The translations under genes and the position numbers were made by a program. The notes below the pieces were generated by a model. The model saw nothing but the letters and a program-made list of their open reading frames with translations, made no database searches and was not told where the DNA came from. DNA of 16,471 nt, taken from positions 320 to 16,790 of the forward strand of contig JBMFMB010000025.1 in NCBI GenBank assembly GCA_049970895.1. The letters are read 5' to 3'. Source of the stretch: Candidatus Bathyarchaeia archaeon (GTDB taxonomy: Archaea > Thermoproteota > Bathyarchaeia > Bathyarchaeales > Bathycorpusculaceae). Every line of letters begins with the position of its first letter. Within the stretch, counting starts at the first letter, position 1. This document shows, piece by piece, positions 1,009-15,309 of the stretch.

Positions 1009-2955
1009 TTATAGCATTTTTATTATTTCCTCTTGGAGATTGCTGGGTGTTAGTTTTATTATTTTTATGTGTTTTGCGTCCGCCGCTTCGACTATGTCTT
1101 TAATGTAGTTTGGGGTGAATAAGTTTTCGGAAACATCGATTACCGCCATTTGGGCGCCCGTTCTCTTTAATTCTCCGCAGATGTCTGTTATTTCTTGTCG
1201 GATTTCTCCGCCTAAAGAAACGTTTGCTTTGCCGTCTGTTATTAGGACAACTAGTGGTTTGATGTTTTTTTGTTTCATCTTCTCCATTTTTATGATGTTT
1301 AATGTTGTGAATAGGGCATGAGGTAGAGGGGTTTTTCCTCCTGTTGGCAGTTTTCTAAGAGCCTCTTCTGCGAGTTCAATGTTGCCTGTTGGTGGGAGCA
1401 AAATTTCAGCGGTTTTTCCGCGGAAAGCTACAAAGGCAACTTTATCTCTACTGATATAAGCATTGTTGAGAAGTCCTAAAACAGCTCCTTTTGCAGCCTC
1501 CATCCTTTTTTTGGCAGCCATTGAACCGCTTGCGTCGACAACAAGAATTATTAGCGAGGAACTTTTAAATAGTCTGACCTTTTCGCGGAGGTCTTCTTCG
1601 CTAATGCTGAGTGGTGTTTGTCCGTTGCTCGCTGCCCTTGCCGCCGCAGCTCTTATGGTTGCGTCGATAGCTATGTCTATTGGTTTATCTTTAGGCATAG
1701 TGCTATAAATGTATGCTCCCTTCTTACTTCCGATAGATTTTATGCTTGATGCTTTTCCACTGGATCTGAAAATTCTTTGTTTCTTTTGCTGTTTAATGTC
1801 GATGAATATGGGAGAATTTGCGTTGAATATTTTCTCTTTAAACTGTTGGCTTGCCGTATCATGGTTGTTACGTTGACTATTTTTCTCTCCATTCACCGCT
1901 TTAGGGTTTTCTCCCGCGCTCCTTAAAAGGAGTTCTTCTAATGTTTCACGAGGAATTTGTGGTCGTTCAAAGGGTTTTTTCCTCATGCGGTGGTGTAGGG
2001 CGAGTTCCATGGCTTCTAATACGTCTTCCCCATTTACTGTTTCGCGTTCATTGAAGGCTGCGATTGTTTTGGCTGTTCGCGTTATAACTATGGGTGCCCT
2101 GTTGCTTATTGCTAGTTTTGAGCAGACATTTACAATTTTGTAGAGGGTGTCTTCTGGCACTTGGACTTTTGGCAGAATTCTCTGAGCCTTCTCAATTTTG
2201 GTTTTTAAGTCGTTTTGAGCTTGTTGATATTTGGCTATGAATCTTTCCGGGTTTGTCTCGAACTCCTCAACTCTCTTTACGATTTCAGCCTGGAGGACTG
2301 GATCGGTTATGGGTTCAACTTCAACCTGAAGCCCAAACCTGTCAAGCAATTGGGGTCTAAGCTCGCCTTCTTCAGGGTTCATTGTGCCTATGAGGATGAA
2401 GCGGCTTGGATGCGATACCGAAACGTTTTCCCTTTCAACTATGTTCACTCCACTGGCCGCCGCATCGAGCAGTATGTCGGCCACATAGTCGTCAAGCAGA
2501 TTAACTTCATCAATGTATAGTATGCCCCTGTTCGCTTCAGCAAGGAGCCCTGGATCAAGAGCCTTTATCCCTTCCTTTAACGCTTTCTCTATGTTAAGTG
2601 TCCCTGCAACTCTATCTACTGTTGCGTTAAGAGGCAGGTTTACTATCCTAACCTTTCTTTTAATCCATTCGAGCTTCTCTCCACTTTTATACCTCTCATA
2701 GCAGGAATCGCACATTTCAAGCGGGTTTTCAGGATTACAGTTAAACGGGCAGTCCTTTACGACTTTTATTTCTGGTAGAAGTTCCGCTAACGACCTAACA
2801 GCTGTCGATTTTCCTGTGCCCTTCTGTCCGCGTATCAGGACCCCGCCTATCCTTGGGTTTATAGCGTTTAACAGCAGAGCTTTCTTCATCTTTTCTTGAC
2901 CAACTATCGCAACAAAAGGAAAAGTGAATCTTATATGATGCGGCATAGTTCTCAT
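1009..2955 (-). CDS. chlD: Class I chelatase ATPase subunit, ChlI-type AAA+ domain fused to VWA domain (ChlD/ChlID-like)
   Basis: [10 protein letters not shown] start motif, Walker [10 protein letters not shown], Walker [64 protein letters not shown]. Confidence 0.92.
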
Positions 2956-2958
2956 CCA

Positions 2959-5900
2959 TTATTCTTCTGATTCAAGAATCTCCTCGGTCTTTAGATATTC
3001 ATCTTCAAGCCTTTCAAGGGTTTGCTTATCAGCCTTCCAATATCCACGCTTAGCTGCCTCAAGGAGTTTTCCAATGATTTTTCGAAATGCCCAAACATTT
3101 GCATCCTTTATTCTTTCCGCTCTTTCTTTGTCAAATATGAGGTTTTCAGCCACTTTGCTCCACATCCAGTCTTCGACTCCTCCGAGCGTTGCTGATAAAC
3201 CGAGCATATATTCAACCCTGTCAGCTATTTTAGTTGCCCCGTTAAAGCCGTGCTTAATCATCGCGTCCAACCATTTAGGATTAATGGTCCTCGTAACTAT
3301 GCCCCTTTTAACGGATTCGCCTGCATCCTCCACCTTTGTAGTTTCCCTAGTTGTGTCCGCCACAAGAACTAGTGGACGCTTCCCGCTTCGGCTCTCAACA
3401 GCTTTCGTTAACCCGCCTAAGAATTCATAATAATGGTCTAGATCGGTTATTTCGTAGTCCACCGTGTCCCTTATCTGCGTAACTACCTCAACATTTGACA
3501 ACAGCGAATCCAGCAGCTTTTCAGCCTCAACGCTTCGTCTTTTTTCACCATATGCAAATTTCATGCTTTCCATGTAGGCATTTACAAGTTCAGCTTCACT
3601 CTTCCACTCTGAAGACTCTATCAGCTTAGTTAAACTTGTCGCGTATAAGCCCTCAGGAGGACCAAAAATTCTAAGAGACGCGTCTTCCCCGTAAACGCTT
3701 TCCATTTTGCGGATGTTAGCCTTAACATAGTTCATTTCTTCCGGCTCCTCAAGCGTTGCTACATGTCGAACGGCCTTGTCTAGAAGTTCAACAAGGTTAT
3801 AGAATGTGTCGCGGAAAATTCCGCAGATTGTGACTACCACGTCTATTCTAGGCCTTCCAAGCTCTGAAAGCGGTATAACCGCTAAATCCCTTATGTATAT
3901 GCTTTTCCAAACGGGCTTAACGCCTAGAAGGTGAAATACAGCTGCAATGGTCTCCCCTCCAGTCTTCATGGTTTCAAAAGCCCATAACACCACGCTAACA
4001 ACCTTAGGATACTTTCCATGCTTTTTGTAAAAGTTTCTAAGGTAATCCTCAGCTATTTTTCTTCCCCTTTCCATCGCAACCTCCGTAGGTATGTTTGTAG
4101 GGTCAAGCTGGTACGTATTCCTCCCCGTTGGGTAAACTTCAGGTGTTCTGATGAAGTCCCCGCCTGGCCCCGGCTCCACAAACTTTCCCTCAAGAGCCTT
4201 TAACACTACACCGATTTCATCAGAAGATACAATTCTCCCATAAACATCTTTTAGGAAGTTAAGTGTCTTCAAAACCTCATTCATGTTCACATTATTCAGC
4301 TTAGGCGTCGAACCATTTTGGATATATTCAGTTATAAGATTCTTAACCATTTCCTCCACATCGCTCAAAACCTCAGAGTATCTTCTTCCATCATGGGACA
4401 TGTTGCGAGGTTTCTCAAGAACCTCTGCATAGTTCAGCCCCTTAGACTCTAAAATAAGTCTGTGTAAGCTTCGGATTTCACCCCTATCATATCTTGACAA
4501 GAACGTTAGGTAGGCGATAACTTCGTCCATTGATGGCTTATCTCCGAGAACATGCAACCCTTTGGGAATTATTGAGCGCTTAAAATCCTGTATTTTGTCG
4601 TAAATTTCCTCAACACTTGATCCTAACCCGTACTTTTGCGCTTTCTCCAAAACTCTTCTCGCAACCTCATATGCCCTATCTTTGCCATATTGTAGAGAGT
4701 CAAAATACTCGATTGTAAGCCTCTCTAACTCCTCAAATTCCCCGTATAACCCGCTGGTCACCATGGGCGGACTGGCATGGTTTATTATTGTGGCGTAGCT
4801 GCGTCTTTTTGCTATTGAGGACTCTGAAGAATTAACCGCGTGGTAAACGTAAATGTTTGGAATGTCGGCTATCAGAATGTCTGGGAAGCAGTCTGATGAA
4901 AGGCCAACTTCTTTTCCGGGTAGAAACTCCAGTGTGCCATGTGTTCCAAGATGGATGATGGCGTCTGCTCCAAATTCGTCTTTAACCCAACCGTAGAAGG
5001 CGACATATTGATGGTGTGGAGGCAAATCCTTATCGTGATAAATTTTGGAGGCGTCTTCATGGACACCTCGAGAAGGTTGAAGACCGACGAAGACGTTTCC
5101 AAAAATTACGCCAGGAATTATTAGAGATGACTCATACACCATTATGTCTCCAGGAGGAGGCCCCCATTCCCTTAGTATGGCGTTTCTGGGTTTCTCAGGA
5201 AATCCTTCCAATATTTTATAATATTTTTCTAGAGACATTTTGATCATTTCATCGAGTTTTGTAGGAGTTTGTATCCATTCTCCAGAATTAACAAGCCCCC
5301 TTGTGATGAAGATATCCTTCAGATCTTTGCCTGATGGCGTATCTGTTACATGGTATCCTTTTTCTTTCATTGCCTTCAAAAGCCTTGATAAGCTTTCAAA
5401 GACGTCCAGGTTGGCCGCTTTTCCAATGTTCTCTTCTCCAGGAGGGTAGTTGTAAAGGATTATCGCTATCCTTTTTTGACTGTTTGGTTTTCTTCTGAGG
5501 TTGACCCATTTTGCGGCTCTCTGCGCTAGCTTTTCAACACGATCTTCGATAGCAACATATTCCTCAAGCTTTACGCCCTCGGTCATTTTCTTTTTGACTG
5601 CATGGGTCACCACCGGCTCGTTTCTGCCGTCCAGCTCGGGCAGAATAACCGTTGTGACCACCTCTACTGGGGGTAAACCGTGCTTTGACTCAAACCATTC
5701 ATCCACAGTATTTGAAGATAGATGCACGCCATGCAGAGCAGGAACATTCAACCTCAAAAGCAATTCTTTAGTTGTATCGTGGTCCCCGCCGATAGGTCCT
5801 CCCGCAAGCCTAAACCATAATAAATCGATGAAAGCTTCAACAATGGGCTTTCCATCAAGAAACATGAACTTTTCTATTGCAAGATAATACCTTAAATCTG

Positions 5901-6705
5901 AGCAGAATATTGGAACGGCGCCCAAACCAAGCTCTTCAAGTTTTTCTGTTAAAAGTTTTGCCGCAGGATATGATTGATCATAATGATAACCGCCGTAGAA
6001 GAGTATGGCAACCAATGGGCGATCGCTGAACTCATACGATTGCAAGTAACGCCTTACGTCAGTATAGATTTCCTCGGTCTTGAAGTTTTTAATCCCCATC
6101 GAAGGCATAACCACAGGTTCAGGAACATCGACGTCAATCCTTGCCTTGCAATACTCTTTCAACAATAAAAGAAGCATCGCGTAATAGTTCTGAAATGACG
6201 GCATGTCATAATATTTAAGAAGTAGACTGTAGTTTCTGGCGTGTTTAAGCATTCCTGCAGGCAATGCCCCGCCAAGTTTTTCAAACCTTTCACGCATTTT
6301 CAGGATTGTTCCATAATCTACCTTGCTTTTCTTGAAAATCCATCTAAACAGAGGTTTCTCTTTCAGACCCGCAAACCTACTTAAAGAGAAACTTCCAAGC
6401 CTTGTAAGATTGATTATTTCTGGAGAGCCCCCGACAAAAACAACAACCGTATTTTTTAAACCTTTAAGCTCCTCGCAAATTATTTTGCTCACAGCATCGC
6501 CGCCCCTAACATCTAGCAAAACCACTGAAGAGCTCCTCAGATCCTCAACAAATTTTTGAGCGTCAACAAGTCCACCGTCAACATCATATGTATTGTAAAA
6601 TCTGAAATCAAGAACCCCTCCCAAGACCTCATTAACCTTTCTAACGGCATCCAGAAGACATGGTCTAAACTGATAACCAACCATAACGATTTTGTGCCTA
6701 ACCAT
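2959..6705 (-). CDS. CobN/magnesium chelatase subunit H family protein (ChlH/BchH-like)
   Basis: 1248 aa with ILPELDG, YNYPPG, GNVFVGLQP, PPHHQY, HLGTHGTLEFLPGKE, AKRRSYA, PTGRN, LGRPRIDV, CGIFRD, DLDHYYE and NPKW...GFNG motifs. Confidence 0.95.
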   Translation of the reverse strand: MVRHKIVMVGYQFRPCLLDAVRKVNEVLGGVLDFRFYNTYDVDGGLVDAQKFVEDLRSSSVVLLDVRGGDAVSKIICEELKGLKNTVVVFVGGSPEIINLTRLGSFSLSRFAGLKEKPLFRWIFKKSKVDYGTILKMRERFEKLGGALPAGMLKHARNYSLLLKYYDMPSFQNYYAMLLLLLKEYCKARIDVDVPEPVVMPSMGIKNFKTEEIYTDVRRYLQSYEFSDRPLVAILFYGGYHYDQSYPAAKLLTEKLEELGLGAVPIFCSDLRYYLAIEKFMFLDGKPIVEAFIDLLWFRLAGGPIGGDHDTTKELLLRLNVPALHGVHLSSNTVDEWFESKHGLPPVEVVTTVILPELDGRNEPVVTHAVKKKMTEGVKLEEYVAIEDRVEKLAQRAAKWVNLRRKPNSQKRIAIILYNYPPGEENIGKAANLDVFESLSRLLKAMKEKGYHVTDTPSGKDLKDIFITRGLVNSGEWIQTPTKLDEMIKMSLEKYYKILEGFPEKPRNAILREWGPPPGDIMVYESSLIIPGVIFGNVFVGLQPSRGVHEDASKIYHDKDLPPHHQYVAFYGWVKDEFGADAIIHLGTHGTLEFLPGKEVGLSSDCFPDILIADIPNIYVYHAVNSSESSIAKRRSYATIINHASPPMVTSGLYGEFEELERLTIEYFDSLQYGKDRAYEVARRVLEKAQKYGLGSSVEEIYDKIQDFKRSIIPKGLHVLGDKPSMDEVIAYLTFLSRYDRGEIRSLHRLILESKGLNYAEVLEKPRNMSHDGRRYSEVLSDVEEMVKNLITEYIQNGSTPKLNNVNMNEVLKTLNFLKDVYGRIVSSDEIGVVLKALEGKFVEPGPGGDFIRTPEVYPTGRNTYQLDPTNIPTEVAMERGRKIAEDYLRNFYKKHGKYPKVVSVVLWAFETMKTGGETIAAVFHLLGVKPVWKSIYIRDLAVIPLSELGRPRIDVVVTICGIFRDTFYNLVELLDKAVRHVATLEEPEEMNYVKANIRKMESVYGEDASLRIFGPPEGLYATSLTKLIESSEWKSEAELVNAYMESMKFAYGEKRRSVEAEKLLDSLLSNVEVVTQIRDTVDYEITDLDHYYEFLGGLTKAVESRSGKRPLVLVADTTRETTKVEDAGESVKRGIVTRTINPKWLDAMIKHGFNGATKIADRVEYMLGLSATLGGVEDWMWSKVAENLIFDKERAERIKDANVWAFRKIIGKLLEAAKRGYWKADKQTLERLEDEYLKTEEILESEE

Positions 6706-6709
6706 ATGC

Positions 6710-7216
6710 TCACCCTAGAGCAATCTTCCGCAGTGTCTGCCTATACTTTAACGCGAGCAAACTGCCAGGAACGGTCAATAATGTACTTGGTATACCTACA
6801 ACTATGAACCAAATCCACCAAGAAGTAAAAGGTAAACCGAAAAAAGTGTAAAGCGCGAATATCACAATCATCGTCCCATAAAATGACAACATACCGGATG
6901 TGACAACGCATTTTTTACAACACAATTTATGATGACTTAGAAAGAAATATAAGTCAAAAATCCCACCGCGGACAAGATGCACAACAGGCGAGAGAGGTGA
7001 GCCGAATATAAAGCCGTTTATTATTCCCACCAATAGCCCAATTACTGTTGGAACTCCCAGCTTATCCGTTATGCCATAAGACGTTAAGTAGAGGAAAGTA
7101 ACCACTATTGCCCCTATTGTAGGATGGCCAACCCACGCAATCATGTGAGCGAAAGCGCTGCAAACAGATATAATCGCAACGAACACTACAATTACAGCGA
7201 TGTATCTGGAATTCAT
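6710..7216 (-). CDS. Integral membrane protein, ECF S-component-like
   Basis: 168 aa with about 5-6 hydrophobic segments; K-x-G-x-x-T-x-x-G-L-x-x-G and G-x-x-x-DL patterns as seen in ECF S components; HHKLCCKKC loop; stop codon 4 nt before the chelatase ATG, overlapping a GGGTGA SD. Confidence 0.6.
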   Translation of the reverse strand: MNSRYIAVIVVFVAIISVCSAFAHMIAWVGHPTIGAIVVTFLYLTSYGITDKLGVPTVIGLLVGIINGFIFGSPLSPVVHLVRGGIFDLYFFLSHHKLCCKKCVVTSGMLSFYGTMIVIFALYTFFGLPFTSWWIWFIVVGIPSTLLTVPGSLLALKYRQTLRKIALG

Positions 7217-7226
7217 TTACATAAAG

Positions 7227-7275
7227 GTATTGCAAGTAAATATATAAGTATTACGAAAGTAAAAAAAAGTATTAC
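7227..7275 (-). promoter_or_regulatory. TATA box (7240-7247) flanked by three GTATTRC boxes; putative repressor operator
   Basis: GTATTGC 7227-7233, GTATTAC 7248-7254, GTATTAC 7269-7275. The minus-strand TTATATAT lies 24-31 nt upstream of the ATG at 7216, suggesting a leaderless mRNA. Confidence 0.75.
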
Positions 7276-8160: not shown

Positions 8161-8865
8161 TTGGAGAATGTCATTTTGAGAGTTGAAGGTTTAAGTGTAA
8201 GGTTGAATGGGGAGGATGTGCTAATGGATTTGTCTTTTAACGTATATGAAGGGGAGGTTTTGGCGATTTTGGGGCCGAATGGTGCGGGGAAAACAACTTT
8301 GTTGAAAGCGTTGCTTGGCATAGTGCCATATGAGGGAGTGGTTGAGTGGCGGGAGGGTGTTAAGGTTGGTTATGTTCCGCAGAGGTTGCCTTTTATTAAG
8401 GATGTGCCTTTAAGCGTTAAAGAATTTTTCCGACTAATGAATGCTTCTGAAAGGAAAACAGCGGAAATTTTGAATTCTATTGGTTTAGGCGAGGAAATTT
8501 TGGAAAGGAGAATTGGTGATTTATCATCTGGCCAGTTTCAAAGAATCTTGATAGGTTGGGCTTTAGCTTCAGATCCTAATGTTCTGCTTTTTGATGAGCC
8601 TTTGGCGGGCATTGACATTGGTGGTCAAGAGTCAGTTTATAACTTTCTTGAAAGGTTAAAGGCGGAGAAGAATTTAACGATTCTATTTGTTACTCACGAG
8701 TTATCAATAGTTTACAGGTTAGCCGACAGAGTTCTATGCTTGAACAAGAGGATGTTATGCAGTGGTGCACCAAAAGAAAAGTTAACTCCAGAGGCAATTT
8801 CAAATCTTTATGCAAGTCCGGTAAAGTTTTATCAGCATAAACATGAAGAAGGTGAAATATCGTGA
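8161..8865 (+). CDS. znuC: Metal (Zn/Mn) ABC transporter ATP-binding protein, ZnuC-like
   Basis: GPNGAGKTT, VGYVPQR, LSSGQFQR, LLFDEP, VTHEL, VLCLNK, His-containing tail YQHKHEE; TTG start after AAGGTG. Confidence 0.9.
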   Translation: MENVILRVEGLSVRLNGEDVLMDLSFNVYEGEVLAILGPNGAGKTTLLKALLGIVPYEGVVEWREGVKVGYVPQRLPFIKDVPLSVKEFFRLMNASERKTAEILNSIGLGEEILERRIGDLSSGQFQRILIGWALASDPNVLLFDEPLAGIDIGGQESVYNFLERLKAEKNLTILFVTHELSIVYRLADRVLCLNKRMLCSGAPKEKLTPEAISNLYASPVKFYQHKHEEGEIS

Positions 8866-9623
8866 GCCGGTTTCTTCTTAGTTTGCTTGCTGGGATTTTT
8901 ATTGGAGGAGCTGCTGGTTTCTTAGGTTCATTGATGTTGCCGAAACGGATGTCCTTGGTGGCTGGTCCTTTAGGTCATTTAGCCTTGCCTGGAATTGCCT
9001 TAGCTTTGATTTATGGCTTTAACATCTCCTTGGGAGCTTTCCCATTTGTTATTTTAGGAATAGTTCTGATTTGGCTTTTTGAGAGGAGAACAAAACTGCC
9101 GACTGAGGCTTTAACCGCTGTCGTGTTTGCTACAGGCGTTGCCATTGCCTTTTTCTTTTTGCCAATTGAACAGGCAGAAGCAGCCTTAGTCGGAGACATT
9201 TCAAGCATACAACTTGATGATGCAGTTTTTTCCATCGCCCTGTGCATGCTCGTCTTTTTCGTTGTCGAAAAAATCTATTCTAAAATGACTTTGATAAATA
9301 TCTCTGAAGACTTGGCGAAGTCTCAAAAGATTAATGTTGAAAAATACAATTTGGTTTACCTTTTACTGATTGCTTTGATTGTTGCTTTGGGAGTGAAGGT
9401 TGTTGGTGGACTCCTAACTGCGGCTATTGTGGCGATACCCGCTGTTACGTCAAGGAATTTGGCTAAAAACCTCGCCCAATATAAATTTTTATCCTTGAGC
9501 TTTGGCATTACAAGCTCAGCCGCTGGGATTATTCTTTGGCATGTAACATCGTTGCCGGCAGGGCCGTTAATCATAGTTGCTGGCGCCATTCTGTTTGTAA
9601 TTTCCACAATCTTTAAAAAATGA
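8862..9623 (+). CDS. znuB: Metal ABC transporter permease, ZnuB/ABC-3 family
   Basis: KRMSL..PLGHLALPGIA, LVGDI, KVVGGLL, IPA, LPAGPLII; GTGA overlap with the ATPase gene. Confidence 0.9.
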   Translation: MSRFLLSLLAGIFIGGAAGFLGSLMLPKRMSLVAGPLGHLALPGIALALIYGFNISLGAFPFVILGIVLIWLFERRTKLPTEALTAVVFATGVAIAFFFLPIEQAEAALVGDISSIQLDDAVFSIALCMLVFFVVEKIYSKMTLINISEDLAKSQKINVEKYNLVYLLLIALIVALGVKVVGGLLTAAIVAIPAVTSRNLAKNLAQYKFLSLSFGITSSAAGIILWHVTSLPAGPLIIVAGAILFVISTIFKK

Positions 9624-10252: not shown

Positions 10253-10585
10253 GTGAAAAAGAAAATGGCATGGGGTTGGAGAGGTAGAGGTGGAGGATGG
10301 GCTGGACCTTGGCCTGGAAGAGGTCCTTTCAGCTATTTGCCGCCTTGGCAGAGACCGGGATGGCTTTTCGGTTTTGGCAGAGGATTCGGCAGATGGCTGT
10401 GGGGCTACCCATATAACCCTTGGGTTTGCGCTAGGTTTCCGTGGCTTCCAAGATGGTGGTGGGCATATCCGCAATACTGGTATTGGCCCTCATATGCTGG
10501 TTATGCATGGCCCTACACAGCCTATAGCTGGGGATTCTATGGATATCCATACTGGCTTCTAACGCCTTACATGCCATATTGGTGA
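10253..10585 (+). CDS. Trp/Gly/Tyr/Pro-rich protein resembling the DUF5320 N-terminal region
   Basis: GRGGGWAGPWPGRGPFSYLPPWQRPGW and WVCARFPWLPRWWW; GAGGTGA SD at 10250-10256 suggests the start is ATG 10265. Confidence 0.8.
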   Translation: MKKKMAWGWRGRGGGWAGPWPGRGPFSYLPPWQRPGWLFGFGRGFGRWLWGYPYNPWVCARFPWLPRWWWAYPQYWYWPSYAGYAWPYTAYSWGFYGYPYWLLTPYMPYW

Positions 10586-10597
10586 GAGTGAATTAAG

Positions 10598-10912
10598 ATG
10601 ACATGGCCTTGGCCTAGAAGATACAGACGATGGTGGGCTTATCCACCTCAATATCCATACTCTTACCCGCCACCGCCACAGCAGTATCCATATATGCCGT
10701 ATGCTTATCCGCCGATGTATCCACAATATCCGCCGCCAGCACCGCCTATGCCACAGTCTTTAGAAGATGAGCTATCAGCCTTAGAAGACTACAAGAAGGA
10801 GCTTGAAGATGAGAAAGCCAGCATAGAACAAGAAATAAGCGACGTAGAAGCAAGAATAAAAGAGTTAAAGGCTATGCTTGAAAAGGGCGGAGGACAACCG
10901 CCGGGACCGTGA
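10598..10912 (+). CDS. Pro/Tyr-rich protein with acidic coiled coil, resembling the DUF5320 C-terminal region
   Basis: YPPQYPYSYPPPP repeats followed by EDELSALEDYKKELEDEKASIEQEISDVEARIKELK heptads. Confidence 0.85.
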   Translation: MTWPWPRRYRRWWAYPPQYPYSYPPPPQQYPYMPYAYPPMYPQYPPPAPPMPQSLEDELSALEDYKKELEDEKASIEQEISDVEARIKELKAMLEKGGGQPPGP

Positions 10913-12457: not shown

Positions 12458-12979
12458 TTGGAGTTGCGAGGTATGTTTCTTTCGCTTAAGCCCATAGGAA
12501 CAGTTCATGTAGATTTTAGTGATAACGAGGTCAGAGCAAGCTTGGATGAAGGAGTTGAAGGCATCATAGAAGTTCATGAAGAGTTCATGGATGGACTAGG
12601 CGGCATTGATGGATTCTCCCATTTAATCATTATCGCTTTTCTTGATAGAGTTTCCGAAGAGCAGCGCAAGGTTCTCAAAGTCAAGCCTAAGCGTTTGAAA
12701 CTTTTTGGATTCAGCATAGAAAAGTTACCTGAAGTAGGCGTATTCTGCACTGATTCTCCGCATAGGCCAAACCCATTAGCTTTAACCATAGTAGAACTAG
12801 TCAAAAGGGAAGGAAGATATCTCAAAGTTAAGCATCTGGACTTGTTTAATGGAACACCTATACTCGACATAAAACCGTATACTCCATCAAGGAGAATAAA
12901 CGAAATTAAACTTCCAGTATGGTATCAGAAAATTTTAGAAGAAGCAAAAGCAAAATATCCACAGCTTAGAGATTTTTAA
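12458..12979 (+). CDS. tsaA: TrmO/TsaA (YaeB) family SAM-binding tRNA methyltransferase-like protein
   Basis: LKPIGTV, GL.GIDGFSHL, GVFCTDSPHRPNPL, LDLFNGTPILDIKPY. Confidence 0.92.
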   Translation: MELRGMFLSLKPIGTVHVDFSDNEVRASLDEGVEGIIEVHEEFMDGLGGIDGFSHLIIIAFLDRVSEEQRKVLKVKPKRLKLFGFSIEKLPEVGVFCTDSPHRPNPLALTIVELVKREGRYLKVKHLDLFNGTPILDIKPYTPSRRINEIKLPVWYQKILEEAKAKYPQLRDF

Positions 12980-13116: not shown

Positions 13117-13662
13117 ATGGGGCGTTCAACAAATTTTGGATTTCACACTCATAAAGAATGTGCTAGCTTTAGTAGTGGCTTCTGCATAATGAGTGGCATC
13201 GTCGTAGATCCTAATGGAACTGCTTGCCCAAATTTTACGCCAAAACGCATGATAACAACGCCTCATTCAGCAAGAGCGTTTCCTCAAGCTCAACAAACTC
13301 GATGGTTGCCACCGTACTTCTCAGAGTCAACTCGGCAATTCTATTATTCGCCTGGCTACATCCCAAACTTGTGGGAGATGTACAGCTACCAAATTTATCC
13401 CTGGAACTCATATGAATACTTTGATTATCTCATGATGCTGTGGTTAAATTTTCCGTTGTCATATGCGGAGTATTGTCGTCCAGCATATGTTTACGGATAC
13501 CAGCCATACTATGTGTTTACACATTCTCATCAACTTCCTCCACAAACACCTTATGAGGAGTTAATCATGTTAGAAGCCTATAGGAGGGAGCTTCAAGCTG
13601 AAATTGAAGAACTTGATGCAAGAATCAGAAAGCTTAAACGATGGGTTGAAATGGAACCTTAA
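13117..13662 (+). CDS. DUF5320-like Tyr/Pro-rich coiled-coil protein with N-terminal His/Cys motif
   Basis: HKEC...FC...CPNF N-terminus, Tyr/Pro-rich middle, EELIMLEAYRRELQAEIEELDARIRKLK coil similar to that of 10598-10912. Confidence 0.7.
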   Translation: MGRSTNFGFHTHKECASFSSGFCIMSGIVVDPNGTACPNFTPKRMITTPHSARAFPQAQQTRWLPPYFSESTRQFYYSPGYIPNLWEMYSYQIYPWNSYEYFDYLMMLWLNFPLSYAEYCRPAYVYGYQPYYVFTHSHQLPPQTPYEELIMLEAYRRELQAEIEELDARIRKLKRWVEMEP

Positions 13663-14107: not shown

Positions 14108-14299
14108 ATGACGACCATTGAGATAAAAATAGACTATGCTAAATGCGTCGGATGCGGAGAATGCGTTAAAGCTTGCAGCTATGGTGTGTTAGAGTGGCTT
14201 GACGAGAGGCCCGTGGTGGTGAATCCTAAAGATTGTGCATTTTGCTTAGAATGCGAGAAAAACTGTCCCGTTAACGCGATAACCCATAAGGAAAAATAA
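14108..14299 (+). CDS. 2x[4Fe-4S] ferredoxin
   Basis: CVGCGECVKACS and CAFCLECEKNCP. Confidence 0.95.
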   Translation: MTTIEIKIDYAKCVGCGECVKACSYGVLEWLDERPVVVNPKDCAFCLECEKNCPVNAITHKEK

Positions 14300-14344
14300 C
14301 AAGAGGTGTAAATCAAAGAATAAAAGCTTAGATATGGGATGCGT

Positions 14345-14551
14345 ATGTGTCTTTTAAAGGTTTACGTTGATAATGGAAAATCGGGTAGAAAGCTTGTTGC
14401 TGAAGGAATAGCTTTGGTCGCCAAAGAAAATGGTAGAATTAAACTTAAAAATTTGGAGTTAAAAGAGATAAGTTTGGATAATGCTGAAATCGTTTCCATC
14501 GATACACTAAATTCGGTGCTGCTTCTAAAAAGGAGGCGTGCCCAAACTTGA
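14345..14551 (+). CDS. cooT: CooT family nickel-binding protein
   Basis: MCLLKVY N-terminus (Cys2) when started at the second ATG; small beta-rich protein ending AEIVSIDTLNSVLLL; adjacent to cooC. Confidence 0.8.
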   Translation: MCLLKVYVDNGKSGRKLVAEGIALVAKENGRIKLKNLELKEISLDNAEIVSIDTLNSVLLLKRRRAQT

Positions 14552-15309
14552 AAATAATGGTTTGCGGAAAAGGTGGTTCAGGAAAATCTGTGGTTTCGGT
14601 TCTAATGGCTAAGGTGTTAACCAGAACCCATAAAGTGTATTTGATAGACTCCGACGAATCCAATGTTTTACTTCCCAAACTGCTAGGCGTAAATCCGCCA
14701 AAACCACTTGTGGAATATCTCGGAGGGAAAAAGAATCTCTTTTCAAAAGGTGAAGTGAACATTGTGAAGGCTTTAGCAAAGGCTGGCAAAGGTGTCAAAC
14801 TGGATAATTTGCCTTCGGAATATGTTTCCACGTCGCATGAAGGAATTAAACTTGTAACCATAGGCAAAGTCAGAAACTTCGGCGAAGGTTGCGCATGCCC
14901 ACTAAACTTTCTGACAAAAACGTTGCTCAAAAATTTAACACTAAATAAAAATGAAATAGTGTTAGTGGACACTGACGCTGGAATAGAACATGTTGGGAGA
15001 GGAGTAGAAGAAGGCTGCGACGCTATACTGGCTGTTGCAGATCCAACAGCTGAAGCCTTAACTTTGGCAAAAGTTCTGAAGGAAACATTTCAGAGTCTCA
15101 ATAAGAAATTTTGGCTCGTGTTGAATAAAGTGGCTCCTAAAATAATAAAGCCTATGAAGGAAAAAGCAGAGAATATGAAACTTGAAATCACTGGAGAAAT
15201 CAGATTTGATGAGGAAGTTTTTGAATCTTGCATGGATGGGGGAGTTTTACATTCAAAAGAAGCCTTAGCTGATGTAGAGAAAATCTTGAAAAACATTGGA
15301 CTAATCTAA
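14548..15309 (+). CDS. cooC: CooC-type nickel-insertion ATPase (CODH/ACS maturation)
   Basis: CGKGGSGKS, IDSDESN, GEGCACP (CxC), VDTDAGIEHVGRG, VLNKV; TTGA overlap with cooT. Confidence 0.92.
   Translation: MKIMVCGKGGSGKSVVSVLMAKVLTRTHKVYLIDSDESNVLLPKLLGVNPPKPLVEYLGGKKNLFSKGEVNIVKALAKAGKGVKLDNLPSEYVSTSHEGIKLVTIGKVRNFGEGCACPLNFLTKTLLKNLTLNKNEIVLVDTDAGIEHVGRGVEEGCDAILAVADPTAEALTLAKVLKETFQSLNKKFWLVLNKVAPKIIKPMKEKAENMKLEITGEIRFDEEVFESCMDGGVLHSKEALADVEKILKNIGLI

Follow-up and report, generated by a model that had tools for sequence, protein, structure and literature searches.

The 16,471-nucleotide (nt) stretch of Candidatus Bathyarchaeia archaeon DNA analysed here (assembly GCA_049970895.1, contig JBMFMB010000025.1, positions 320 to 16,790; contig C25 of our set, hereafter the window) carries on its minus strand an operon of three genes. 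These code for a small membrane protein (P0001), the large subunit of a class I chelatase (P0002) and a fused ChlI-ChlD motor subunit (P0003), and they stand behind a putative operator of the NikR type (Table 1). A first-pass annotation, made from the letters of the window alone, had described three tightly coupled genes, 3-4 nt apart, served by one promoter. The open reading frames (ORFs) and gap letters agree: 4 nt separate P0001 from P0002 (TGA-GCAT-ATG) and 3 nt separate P0002 from P0003 (TAA-TGG-ATG), and one putative promoter region with a repeated GTAATAC motif, at 7227-7275, precedes them. In our view the locus probably codes for a NikR-regulated module in which an S-component-like membrane protein of the energy-coupling factor (ECF) transporter type and a class I chelatase act on an imported substrate. 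The host genome is a 97% complete metagenome-assembled genome (MAG) of 1.34 Mb in 79 contigs, and the window stretch was found in sequencing runs labelled hot springs metagenome.

Table 1. Genes of the operon, elements of its promoter and further boxes in the host genome (aa, amino acids)
Feature	Position	Strand	Description
P0001	6710-7216	minus	168 aa, six-helix membrane protein, predicted ECF S-component fold
P0002	2959-6705	minus	1248 aa, soluble class I chelatase large subunit, assigned by profile scores to a BchH-like archaeal clade
P0003	1009-2955	minus	648 aa, ChlI-ChlD fusion, AAA+ motor with VWA/MIDAS
O1, putative NikR-type operator	7248-7275	minus	GTAATAC-N14-GTAATAC
TATA-like TTATATAT	7240-7247	minus	abutted by the proximal half-site of O1, ~31 nt ahead of the P0001 ATG
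O2, second putative operator	7227-7254	minus	GTAATAC-N14-GcAATAC, 13/14 positions, overlaps O1 and spans the TATA-like element (L025 position 7963)
Box site 2			between nikR1 (NikR_C 98 bits, plus RHH) and the divergent operon of a 176-aa membrane protein
Box site 3			ahead of FmdE-zf, Peripla_BP_2, FecCD and ABC ATPase genes, the genome's only FecCD system
Box site 4	within G000:C28:359-1564		between divergent 98- and 121-aa membrane-protein genes adjoining nikR2
Box site 5	G000:C15:4742-4769		GTAATAC-N14-GTATTAC, flanked by the end of a CoaBC-like gene and, ~590 nt off, by an HtrA-like protease gene

A putative NikR operator and its regulon

The box ahead of the operon has the same architecture as the NikR signal published for delta-proteobacteria, GTGTTAC-N13/14-GTAACAC, which is described there as found in either orientation (PMC545781). 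O1 and O2 together make three half-sites with a 21-bp period, the third (GcAATAC) lying 14 nt further on; this third half-site recurs in the near-identical record L002 and in none of the L026-L033 promoters. Across the host genome the pattern GTRWYAC-N14-GTRWYAC is found at five places, always with the N14 spacer. When the spacer was varied from N8 to N21 on both strands, 10 counts were obtained at N14, 2 at N11 and 0 at the 12 other spacings, and the reversed pattern gave 2 counts, in a genome holding 358 half-sites. Mononucleotide shuffles (N13-15) were rejected as a chance control: they returned 0-10 counts against the 10 observed and were uninformative because real half-sites are about fourfold depleted, and the spacer and reversed-pattern controls were therefore used instead.

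The operon diverging from nikR1, on contig C8, codes, besides the 176-aa membrane protein, for FmdE, a metallo-beta-lactamase-fold protein, DUF1893, thioredoxin and DUF2148. In the FecCD system of site 3, on contig C9, the binding protein has 384 aa. The 98/121-aa membrane-protein pair at nikR2 belongs to no known family. The fifth box, on contig C15, has no evident target gene and may be a chance occurrence. An H...HxHx5C pattern, which we take from E. coli NikR to be that of the metal ligands, is kept in both NikR paralogues of the host. It had been suggested in the first-pass annotation that the operator pattern points to nickel, and the NikR-signal architecture, the presence of the box before nikR and its enrichment at the N14 spacing alone all support this.

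The box has been kept in relatives. With 13-14 of its 14 positions it lies 56-74 nt upstream of the first gene in 14 of 16 loci with P0001; L039, one of the other two, has its half-sites at N15, and L037, where the H-like gene precedes a 37%-identical P0001, has no box. Genome G465 contains three exact boxes (none with the reversed pattern), at the chelatase operon, at an operon of a periplasmic binding protein (PBP) and FecCD, and beside an orthologue of the 98-aa gene, while G724 has an exact box before nikR and a 13/14 box between divergent H-like and ChlID genes. Six metagenome loci show an orthologue of nikR2 (62-80% identity; 77-80% in five), the 98/121-aa pair, or both, upstream of P0001-H-ChlID; the pair is 83-90% identical in those loci (for example L026:6001-7195) and stands alone in L035. 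Its arrangement, with the box between the two genes and a nikR paralogue beside them, is preserved in relatives and in G465. In L029 an FmdE-PBP-FecCD-ATPase operon (70-80% identity) lies directly ahead of P0001. Where these units (nikR2, the 98/121-aa pair, FmdE-FecBCD and P0001-H-ChlID) are clustered in metagenome loci, each has its own box. Other cassette neighbours were considered as parts of the system and set aside, being not conserved beyond nikR, the 98/121-aa pair and the FmdE-FecBCD operon. No box reaching 13/14 was found upstream of nine loci at 34-37% identity, seven of which are of the CobN type.

Because the box matches the NikR signal, precedes nikR and uptake genes and recurs in relatives, the operon belongs, on the evidence of its promoter sequence, to a conserved regulon whose putative operator also precedes nikR. 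Like the known NikR regulons (nikABCDE, nikMNQO), it uses two 7-bp half-sites GTRWYAC with a 14-bp spacer, and sites at nikR and uptake genes. Unlike them, it has no nikMNQO or nikABCDE and counts among its members a class I chelatase, two unnamed S-fold families, an FmdE/FecBCD-type importer and the 98/121-aa pair. We found no paper tying NikR to a class I chelatase in literature coverage that did not extend to the main 2006 census of archaeal NikR sites.

The membrane protein and the chelatase subunits

P0001 gave no match above threshold in Pfam, in NCBIfam (default thresholds) or in sequence and profile searches of PDB. Below threshold, 10 of the 16 family members matched Trep_Strep (best E 0.013) and 2 of the 16 matched ABC_cobalt (best E 0.0011). 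The family counts 17 relatives among 5.8 billion clustered proteins, and among 401 genomes of the class a close copy was found only in the near-identical G358. By its sequence P0001 is the founder of a small His/Cys-rich family, whose members all share H24, H31, N67, R83, D88, H96, C99 and C103, with H80 and C100 kept in nearly all. Hydropathy and the positive-inside rule predict six helices, with the N and the C terminus on the inner side, which would place H24 and H31 in outer loop 1, H80, R83 and D88 in helix 4, and the HHxLCCxxC motif (HHKLCCKKC, 95-103) in a cytoplasmic loop between helices 4 and 5.

An AlphaFold2 model of P0001, built from a 16-sequence alignment, reached a pLDDT of 89.2 and a pTM of 0.85. 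In Foldseek its top eight PDB rows were all ECF S components, with weak E values (from 0.014) and TM-scores of 0.55-0.67. Exhaustive structural alignment with VIA put 5edl_A first (Z 16.3, root-mean-square deviation 2.9, 161 of 168 residues), followed by FolT, ThiT, PanT, RibU, BioY, CbiM (Z 9.9), NikM (9.8) and BtuM (8.6); the top 15 rows (Z 16.3-8.6) are all S components or BtuM, and unrelated proteins appear from Z 8.0 down. A language-model atlas likewise points to S components. An S-component fold is thus predicted for P0001 with confidence, and at the level of predicted fold this supports the earlier description of a lone ECF S-like protein. As for its being alone, the host has a stand-alone EcfA-EcfA'-EcfT operon (L048), separate from P0001 and with no S gene within the stretch inspected, and EcfT was found in all four genomes with P0001. 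In this respect the host resembles group II ECF systems, whose S genes are scattered away from a shared EcfAA'T module. P0001 shares its predicted six-helix fold with CbiM/NikM, CbrT and the solitary BtuM and BioY, yet differs from them in having no sequence-level family membership, in its own His/Cys motifs and in sharing an operon with a chelatase; it also lacks the lengthy N-terminal segment with which CbiM/NikM bind their metal.

The 176-aa product of the gene next to nikR1 is homologous to P0001 (family against family, hhalign 95.1%, E 3e-8, 151 columns). Its family numbers at least 131 proteins, and all those with a named source come from Bathyarchaeia; in one of the family a PDGLE domain is fused on, and the source calls this protein 'cobalt/nickel transport protein'. 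The predicted model of the 176-aa protein (pLDDT 93.6) has S components in the top 14 structural rows (Z 15.9-9.6).

P0002 matches PF02514 (CobN-Mg_chel) over its full length, with 1164.2 bits for residues 164-1230 on profile positions 2-1090. The motifs picked out in the first-pass annotation are all in place (RLAGGPIGGDH at residue 299, ILPELDG at 354 and HLGTHGTLEFLPGKE at 585), and both HLGTHGTLEFLPGKE and the NSSES stretch align to the ChlH body. That annotation had judged the protein closer to Mg-chelatase H than to CobN, and the scores agree: against TIGR02025 (BchH) P0002 reaches 983.4 bits, above the equivalog cutoff of 829, whereas against TIGR02257 (CobN) it obtains 729 bits, below the cutoff of 822.05. 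Among solved PDB proteins it scores 654 bits with ChlH, 538 and 450 with CobN and 371 with HmuS; the best solved relative, ChlH of Synechocystis, aligns across residues 85-1246. By profile and PDB bit scores, which serve here in place of an anchored phylogeny, P0002 thus does not score as a CobN.

Relatives of P0002 are present in 55 of the 401 phylum genomes sampled. Among 16 proteins scanned, the 12 relatives at 37-76% identity all score best on the BchH model (828-1001 bits), and the four paralogues at 34-35%, which occur in the window's own archaeal family, score best on the CobN model (1013-1066 bits). Because of this division P0002 is, by its profile scores, a member of a separate BchH-like archaeal clade and not CobN proper. 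The clade holds at least 717 proteins at E<=1e-50, mostly archaeal; named sources include Thermofilaceae (Thermoproteota), Nezhaarchaeales, several Asgard lineages, Pyrodictium, Thermococcus and ANME-1, and the source labels read 'magnesium chelatase H' or 'CobN'. P0002 is the sole CobN-family gene of the host.

P0003 consists of a ChlI-type AAA+ domain (Mg_chelatase), AAA_lid_2 and VWA_2, with Walker A GQKGTGKS at 43, Walker B ILYIDE at 145 and MIDAS DASGS at 474; residues 69-85 form an insert with four Cys. Its best model is TIGR02442, 'putative cobaltochelatase', at 734 bits, just under the cutoff of 779. To judge from these motifs, both the large subunit and the motor look intact. Neither P0002 nor P0003 has a transmembrane-like segment, and no 19-aa window of P0002 exceeds a hydropathy of 1.6, so that, as far as sequence can tell, the chelatase is a cytoplasmic enzyme, unlike HmuS.

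The resemblance to Mg-chelatase (BchH/ChlH with BchI and BchD) lies in the best profile, the best solved relative, the soluble large subunit and the AAA+ and VWA/MIDAS motor. Here, however, the I and D subunits are fused in one polypeptide, a gene of predicted S-component fold heads the operon behind a NikR-type operator, and HemC and TP_methylase searches show the host to be without a porphyrin or chlorophyll pathway. With CobN-CobS-CobT and CobN-ChlID the module shares class I architecture, TIGR02442 as the best model for the fusion and a place in cbi clusters for the orthologues of cobamide producers; it differs in that P0002 stays under the CobN cutoff, true CobN paralogues being 34-35% identical to it and above 1000 bits, and in that the host lacks the late-insertion pathway.

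Synteny, orthologues and the host genome

The linkage of P0001 to the chelatase was followed in 15 metagenome loci that code for a relative of P0001, the window's own sequence among them. The H-like gene lies directly downstream of P0001 in 9 of the 15, one of which is the window itself and another of which shows only 40 residues before the contig ends. In one further locus (L037) it lies directly upstream; in one the contig ends; three have a truncated P0001 and no chelatase in the remaining 430-750 nt; and in L029 the H-like gene has been lost, P0001 being followed by a ChlID remnant. The membrane gene is therefore linked to the chelatase in relatives, as the proposal of a three-gene system had it, and ChlID comes next wherever the contig is long enough. 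Identity to the window copies in the metagenome loci is 50-75% for P0001 and 71-76% for the chelatase. The stretch L029:7902-9433 can be seen as a natural deletion variant, with the C-terminal third of ChlID directly after P0001 and the FmdE-FecBCD operon directly upstream.

The three-gene set was also found in G465 and G544, which belong to other families of the phylum. Judged by this distribution the cassette is mobile across hot-spring Thermoproteota, since other families carry it and P0001 had no match in three genomes of the window's own genus.

Orthologues of P0002 stand in several further contexts. In G568 (69% identity) the H-like gene and chlID come after cbiM, an ORF the size of cbiN and a split cbiQ, all in the same orientation; CbiB, a CobT-like gene, CbiC, CbiD and a methylase lie around this row, and CbiX is also present in that genome. 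In G719 (60%) a CbiX gene lies ~150 nt downstream of the orthologue, and in G419 (49%) the orthologue comes after a duplicated EcfA-like ATPase and a CbiQ-like gene. In G624 (41%) chlID shares an operon with an ATP-binding cassette (ABC) ATPase, FecCD and a PBP; the H-like gene is transcribed divergently from this operon, and two boxes lie in the region that separates them. G724 (59%) has FmdE-zf nearby. In G544 (76%) ChlID is followed, at L089:16505-19415, by a PBP with weak BtuF and IsdE matches and then by an AhbD/NirJ-like radical SAM/SPASM gene. The product of the latter scores at best 148 bits, with AhbD, NirJ2, AhbC, NirJ1 and NirJ all far below cutoff, and HemC had no match in the G544 genome. 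As a core part of the system this gene was rejected, its best counterpart in the host genome being 27% identical. Among the nine genomes with orthologues of at least 55% identity, seven have no HemC and only one TP_methylase match. B12-binding proteins are present in all 11 genomes tested, CobS in 3 of the 11.

The host needs nickel, cannot make tetrapyrroles or B12 and is without an intact canonical Ni/Co importer. Its nickel enzymes comprise two CdhA-type carbon monoxide dehydrogenase (CODH) genes and three NiFe-hydrogenase large subunits. Profile searches of the genome gave no match for HemC, CbiX, CbiB, CobS or methyl-coenzyme M reductase (MCR), and the test for chlorophyll synthesis comprised HemC, TP_methylase and the families of the window rather than chlorophyll-specific genes one by one. 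The single TP_methylase match is weak (73 bits) and is probably diphthine synthase. The near-identical G358 shows the same absences of HemC, CbiX and CobS. A late-insertion B12 pathway is thus lacking, and within the window, as had been observed at the outset, no cobalamin or chlorophyll gene occurs among the 20 other ORFs scanned. The genome does code for two proteins with B12-binding domains and one FecCD-type permease. NiCoT had no match. In the only CbiM/NikM-family match (G000:C17:26367-26861) the reading frame is broken by a TGA, and neither CbiN, CbiQ nor CbiO adjoins it; decay of a canonical Ni/Co importer is one possible cause, an assembly error another. Since the host cannot make tetrapyrroles, any macrocycle handled by the chelatase must be imported.

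Proposed roles: metal insertion, metal harvest and others

The reading that we tentatively place first, and hold with considerable reserve, couples metal import by P0001 to insertion of the metal into a salvaged tetrapyrrole. When the effector of NikR, by homology Ni2+, is plentiful, NikR would sit on GTAATAC-N14-GTAATAC at the transcription factor B recognition element (BRE) and TATA element, act as a repressor by occluding them and turn the operon off; when the metal is scarce, the operon would be transcribed as a single unit. P0001, probably energized by the stand-alone EcfA-EcfA'-EcfT, would import a divalent ion, Ni2+ or perhaps Co2+; the outer His residues conserved in its family would bind the ion, and its cytoplasmic HHxLCCxxC loop would pass it to P0002. 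The ChlID motor would then drive insertion into a macrocycle for which the co-regulated FmdE/FecBCD-type system is a candidate importer. The first-pass annotation had proposed that the membrane protein captures a metallo-tetrapyrrole or metal ion and that the chelatase inserts or extracts a metal, possibly nickel. The S-like fold, the operator of nickel type and the import of the macrocycle stand; nickel as the metal itself is possibly right. We lean towards insertion because the orthologues of cobamide producers stand after cbiMNQ within cbi clusters, with the CbiX gene near the G719 orthologue and the EcfA-like and CbiQ-like genes of G419 pointing the same way, because P0001 has metal-like His/Cys motifs and because all ATP-dependent class I chelatase members characterized so far insert metals, to our knowledge.

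Several points weigh against this proposal. The host has no known Ni-tetrapyrrole product or user, MCR being without a match, and spending scarce nickel on insertion under nickel starvation would make little physiological sense; if the metal is cobalt, control by a canonical NikR would be left unexplained. Metal-free macrocycles available for salvage are, as far as we know, not common. A box of at least 13/14 stands at only 4 of 29 orthologue loci and is absent from most at 42-69% identity. Three independent links to FecBCD-type systems (L029, G624 and G544) would fit a ready-made complex better than a free ion. The whole analysis, moreover, is computational, and its structures are predicted models.

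Some of these points argue for the opposite direction. That NikR regulons serve acquisition, that the chelatase is linked three times to chelate importers and that no Ni-tetrapyrrole user is known in the host all favour extraction, in which a FecBCD-type system or P0001 would import a nickel macrocycle, such as F430-type or Ni-porphyrinoid compounds shed by hot-spring neighbours, and P0002 with ChlID would remove the nickel for CODH and hydrogenase maturation, as a nickel counterpart of HmuS. High nickel demand in a host without NiCoT, with an internal stop in its sole CbiM match and with no means of making the macrocycle would agree with such a harvest, as would BtuM, an S-fold protein able to ligate a corrin metal through Cys (PMC6072759), and the CobN-family dechelatase precedent set by HmuS (PMC12583661), a protein of Bacteroidota that, together with BtuS, resembles the present system in belonging to a metal-acquisition gene set with importers in a tetrapyrrole auxotroph. 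Yet HmuS is described in that paper as membrane-anchored, independent of ATP and without a ChlID partner (PMC12583661), whereas P0002 has no transmembrane segment and a ChlID motor 3 nt downstream. HmuS is also the most distant solved relative, no Hmu partner gene occurs among the 20 window ORFs scanned, and no ChlID-type motor is known to drive dechelation at the cost of ATP. The AhbD/NirJ-like gene after the G544 cassette would suit harvest, but is without a close counterpart in the host, and the orthologues of cobamide producers lie in biosynthetic clusters behind metal-ion importers. On balance we regard harvest as doubtful.

Those same clusters (cbi/hem clusters that contain or adjoin clade members occur in G568, G719, G619, G641 and G661) suggest that the clade might instead be an archaeal cobaltochelatase of the CobN-ChlID type, which would re-metallate or complete imported corrinoids with Co2+ supplied through P0001, the NikR-family regulator either sensing cobalt or shutting a Ni/Co-promiscuous importer at high nickel. 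For the cobN-chlID pair of haloarchaea, salvage has been suggested before (PMC8305020). In the host, B12-binding proteins occur without a match for CbiB or CobS, and the only FecCD-type importer, a BtuFCD-like candidate, has the same box; but without CbiB or CobS the host could not finish an incomplete corrinoid. Cobalt-free corrinoids are, we presume, rare, the ligand pattern canonical for nickel is kept in both NikR paralogues, and P0002 falls short of the CobN equivalog cutoff (729 against 822), all of which makes cobamide salvage unlikely. A role outside tetrapyrrole chemistry, namely ATP-driven trafficking in which nickel is stripped from the S component or a non-tetrapyrrole nickelophore and passed to maturation factors, would account for the lack of all tetrapyrrole synthesis in the host, for the lack of HemC and the single TP_methylase match in seven of the nine genomes with close orthologues and for the His/Cys-rich cytoplasmic loop of P0001. 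We think it more unlikely still, as all characterized family members act on tetrapyrroles, the ChlH body can be aligned over HLGTHGTLEFLPGKE and the NSSES stretch, and the cluster contexts in other lineages are tetrapyrrole pathways. That the operon is an ordinary biosynthetic Mg-chelatase or late cobaltochelatase with its pathway genes missed, and the upstream repeat a mere promoter element, is what the automatic names on relatives ('magnesium chelatase subunit H', 'cobaltochelatase CobN') would suggest, and a MAG in 79 contigs might miss genes. It is highly improbable nonetheless: at 97% completeness HemC, CbiX, CbiB and CobS all go unmatched, near-identical G358 agrees, and the box is N14-specific, precedes nikR in two genomes and has been kept while the proteins diverged to 50-75% identity.

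Archaea without chlorophyll or aerobic B12 synthesis hold hundreds of ChlH/CobN-type chelatases (the at least 717 clade members), whose role two recent papers call unclear (PMC12583661, PMC9227772). An older proposal made them F430 nickel chelatases (PMC3087415), an idea abandoned after the discovery of CfbA, a small chelatase (PMC8179277). New here are the link to a putative NikR operator, the predicted S-fold families and the clustered regulon, which make the locus a first testable link of non-photosynthetic archaeal chelatases to nickel handling. It offers three handles: an operator that can be footprinted with its regulator, a dedicated S-fold partner whose substrate can be measured, and a host that cannot supply the macrocycle, so that the enzyme must work on something taken up. 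The locus also points to unrecognized routes of nickel (or Ni/Co) acquisition in hot-spring archaea that depend on CODH and hydrogenase. If harvest were true, this would be the first chelatase run in reverse by a motor, the module would do for nickel what HmuS does for haem iron, and the orphan 'Mg-chelatase' genes present in many archaea that are not phototrophic would have an explanation.

The rest of the window codes for an EamA-type protein, a ZnuBC-like ABC pair, DUF134, NifX-like, TrmO-like, thioredoxin and ferredoxin proteins, CooT and a CooC-like ATPase. As an Rfam scan gave no family at gathering score, no riboswitch was called. The first-pass annotation had cited nearby cooT and cooC in favour of nickel; both are there, CooT and a CooC-like CbiA-family ATPase at 14339-15309, and their support for nickel is circumstantial, as they carry no box. 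They form part of a tight row behind thioredoxin (14108-15309, plus strand), consisting of a 2x[4Fe-4S] ferredoxin, CooT (27.9 bits, cutoff 27) and the CooC-like ATPase, which has no NikR-type box in front although these are nickel-insertion factors. A ZnuC-like ATPase and an ABC-3 (ZnuB-like) permease are encoded at 8161-9623 (plus strand), with no binding-protein gene in the window, and the EamA-family gene stands between this pair and the chelatase promoter. Three plus-strand ORFs (10253-10585, 10598-10912 and 13117-13662) code for proteins in which W, Y, P and G are exceedingly common (WGWRGRGGGWAGPWPG... and PPQYPYSYPPPPQQYPYMPY... are examples); a charged coiled-coil-like tail closes two of the three, and none has a Pfam family above cutoff, one giving a weak sub-cutoff match to Tektin. 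In the window (12458-12979, plus strand), and likewise in the rearranged locus L037 (8748-9179), the cassette has a TrmO_N (TsaA-like) gene within a few kb, which may be coincidence.

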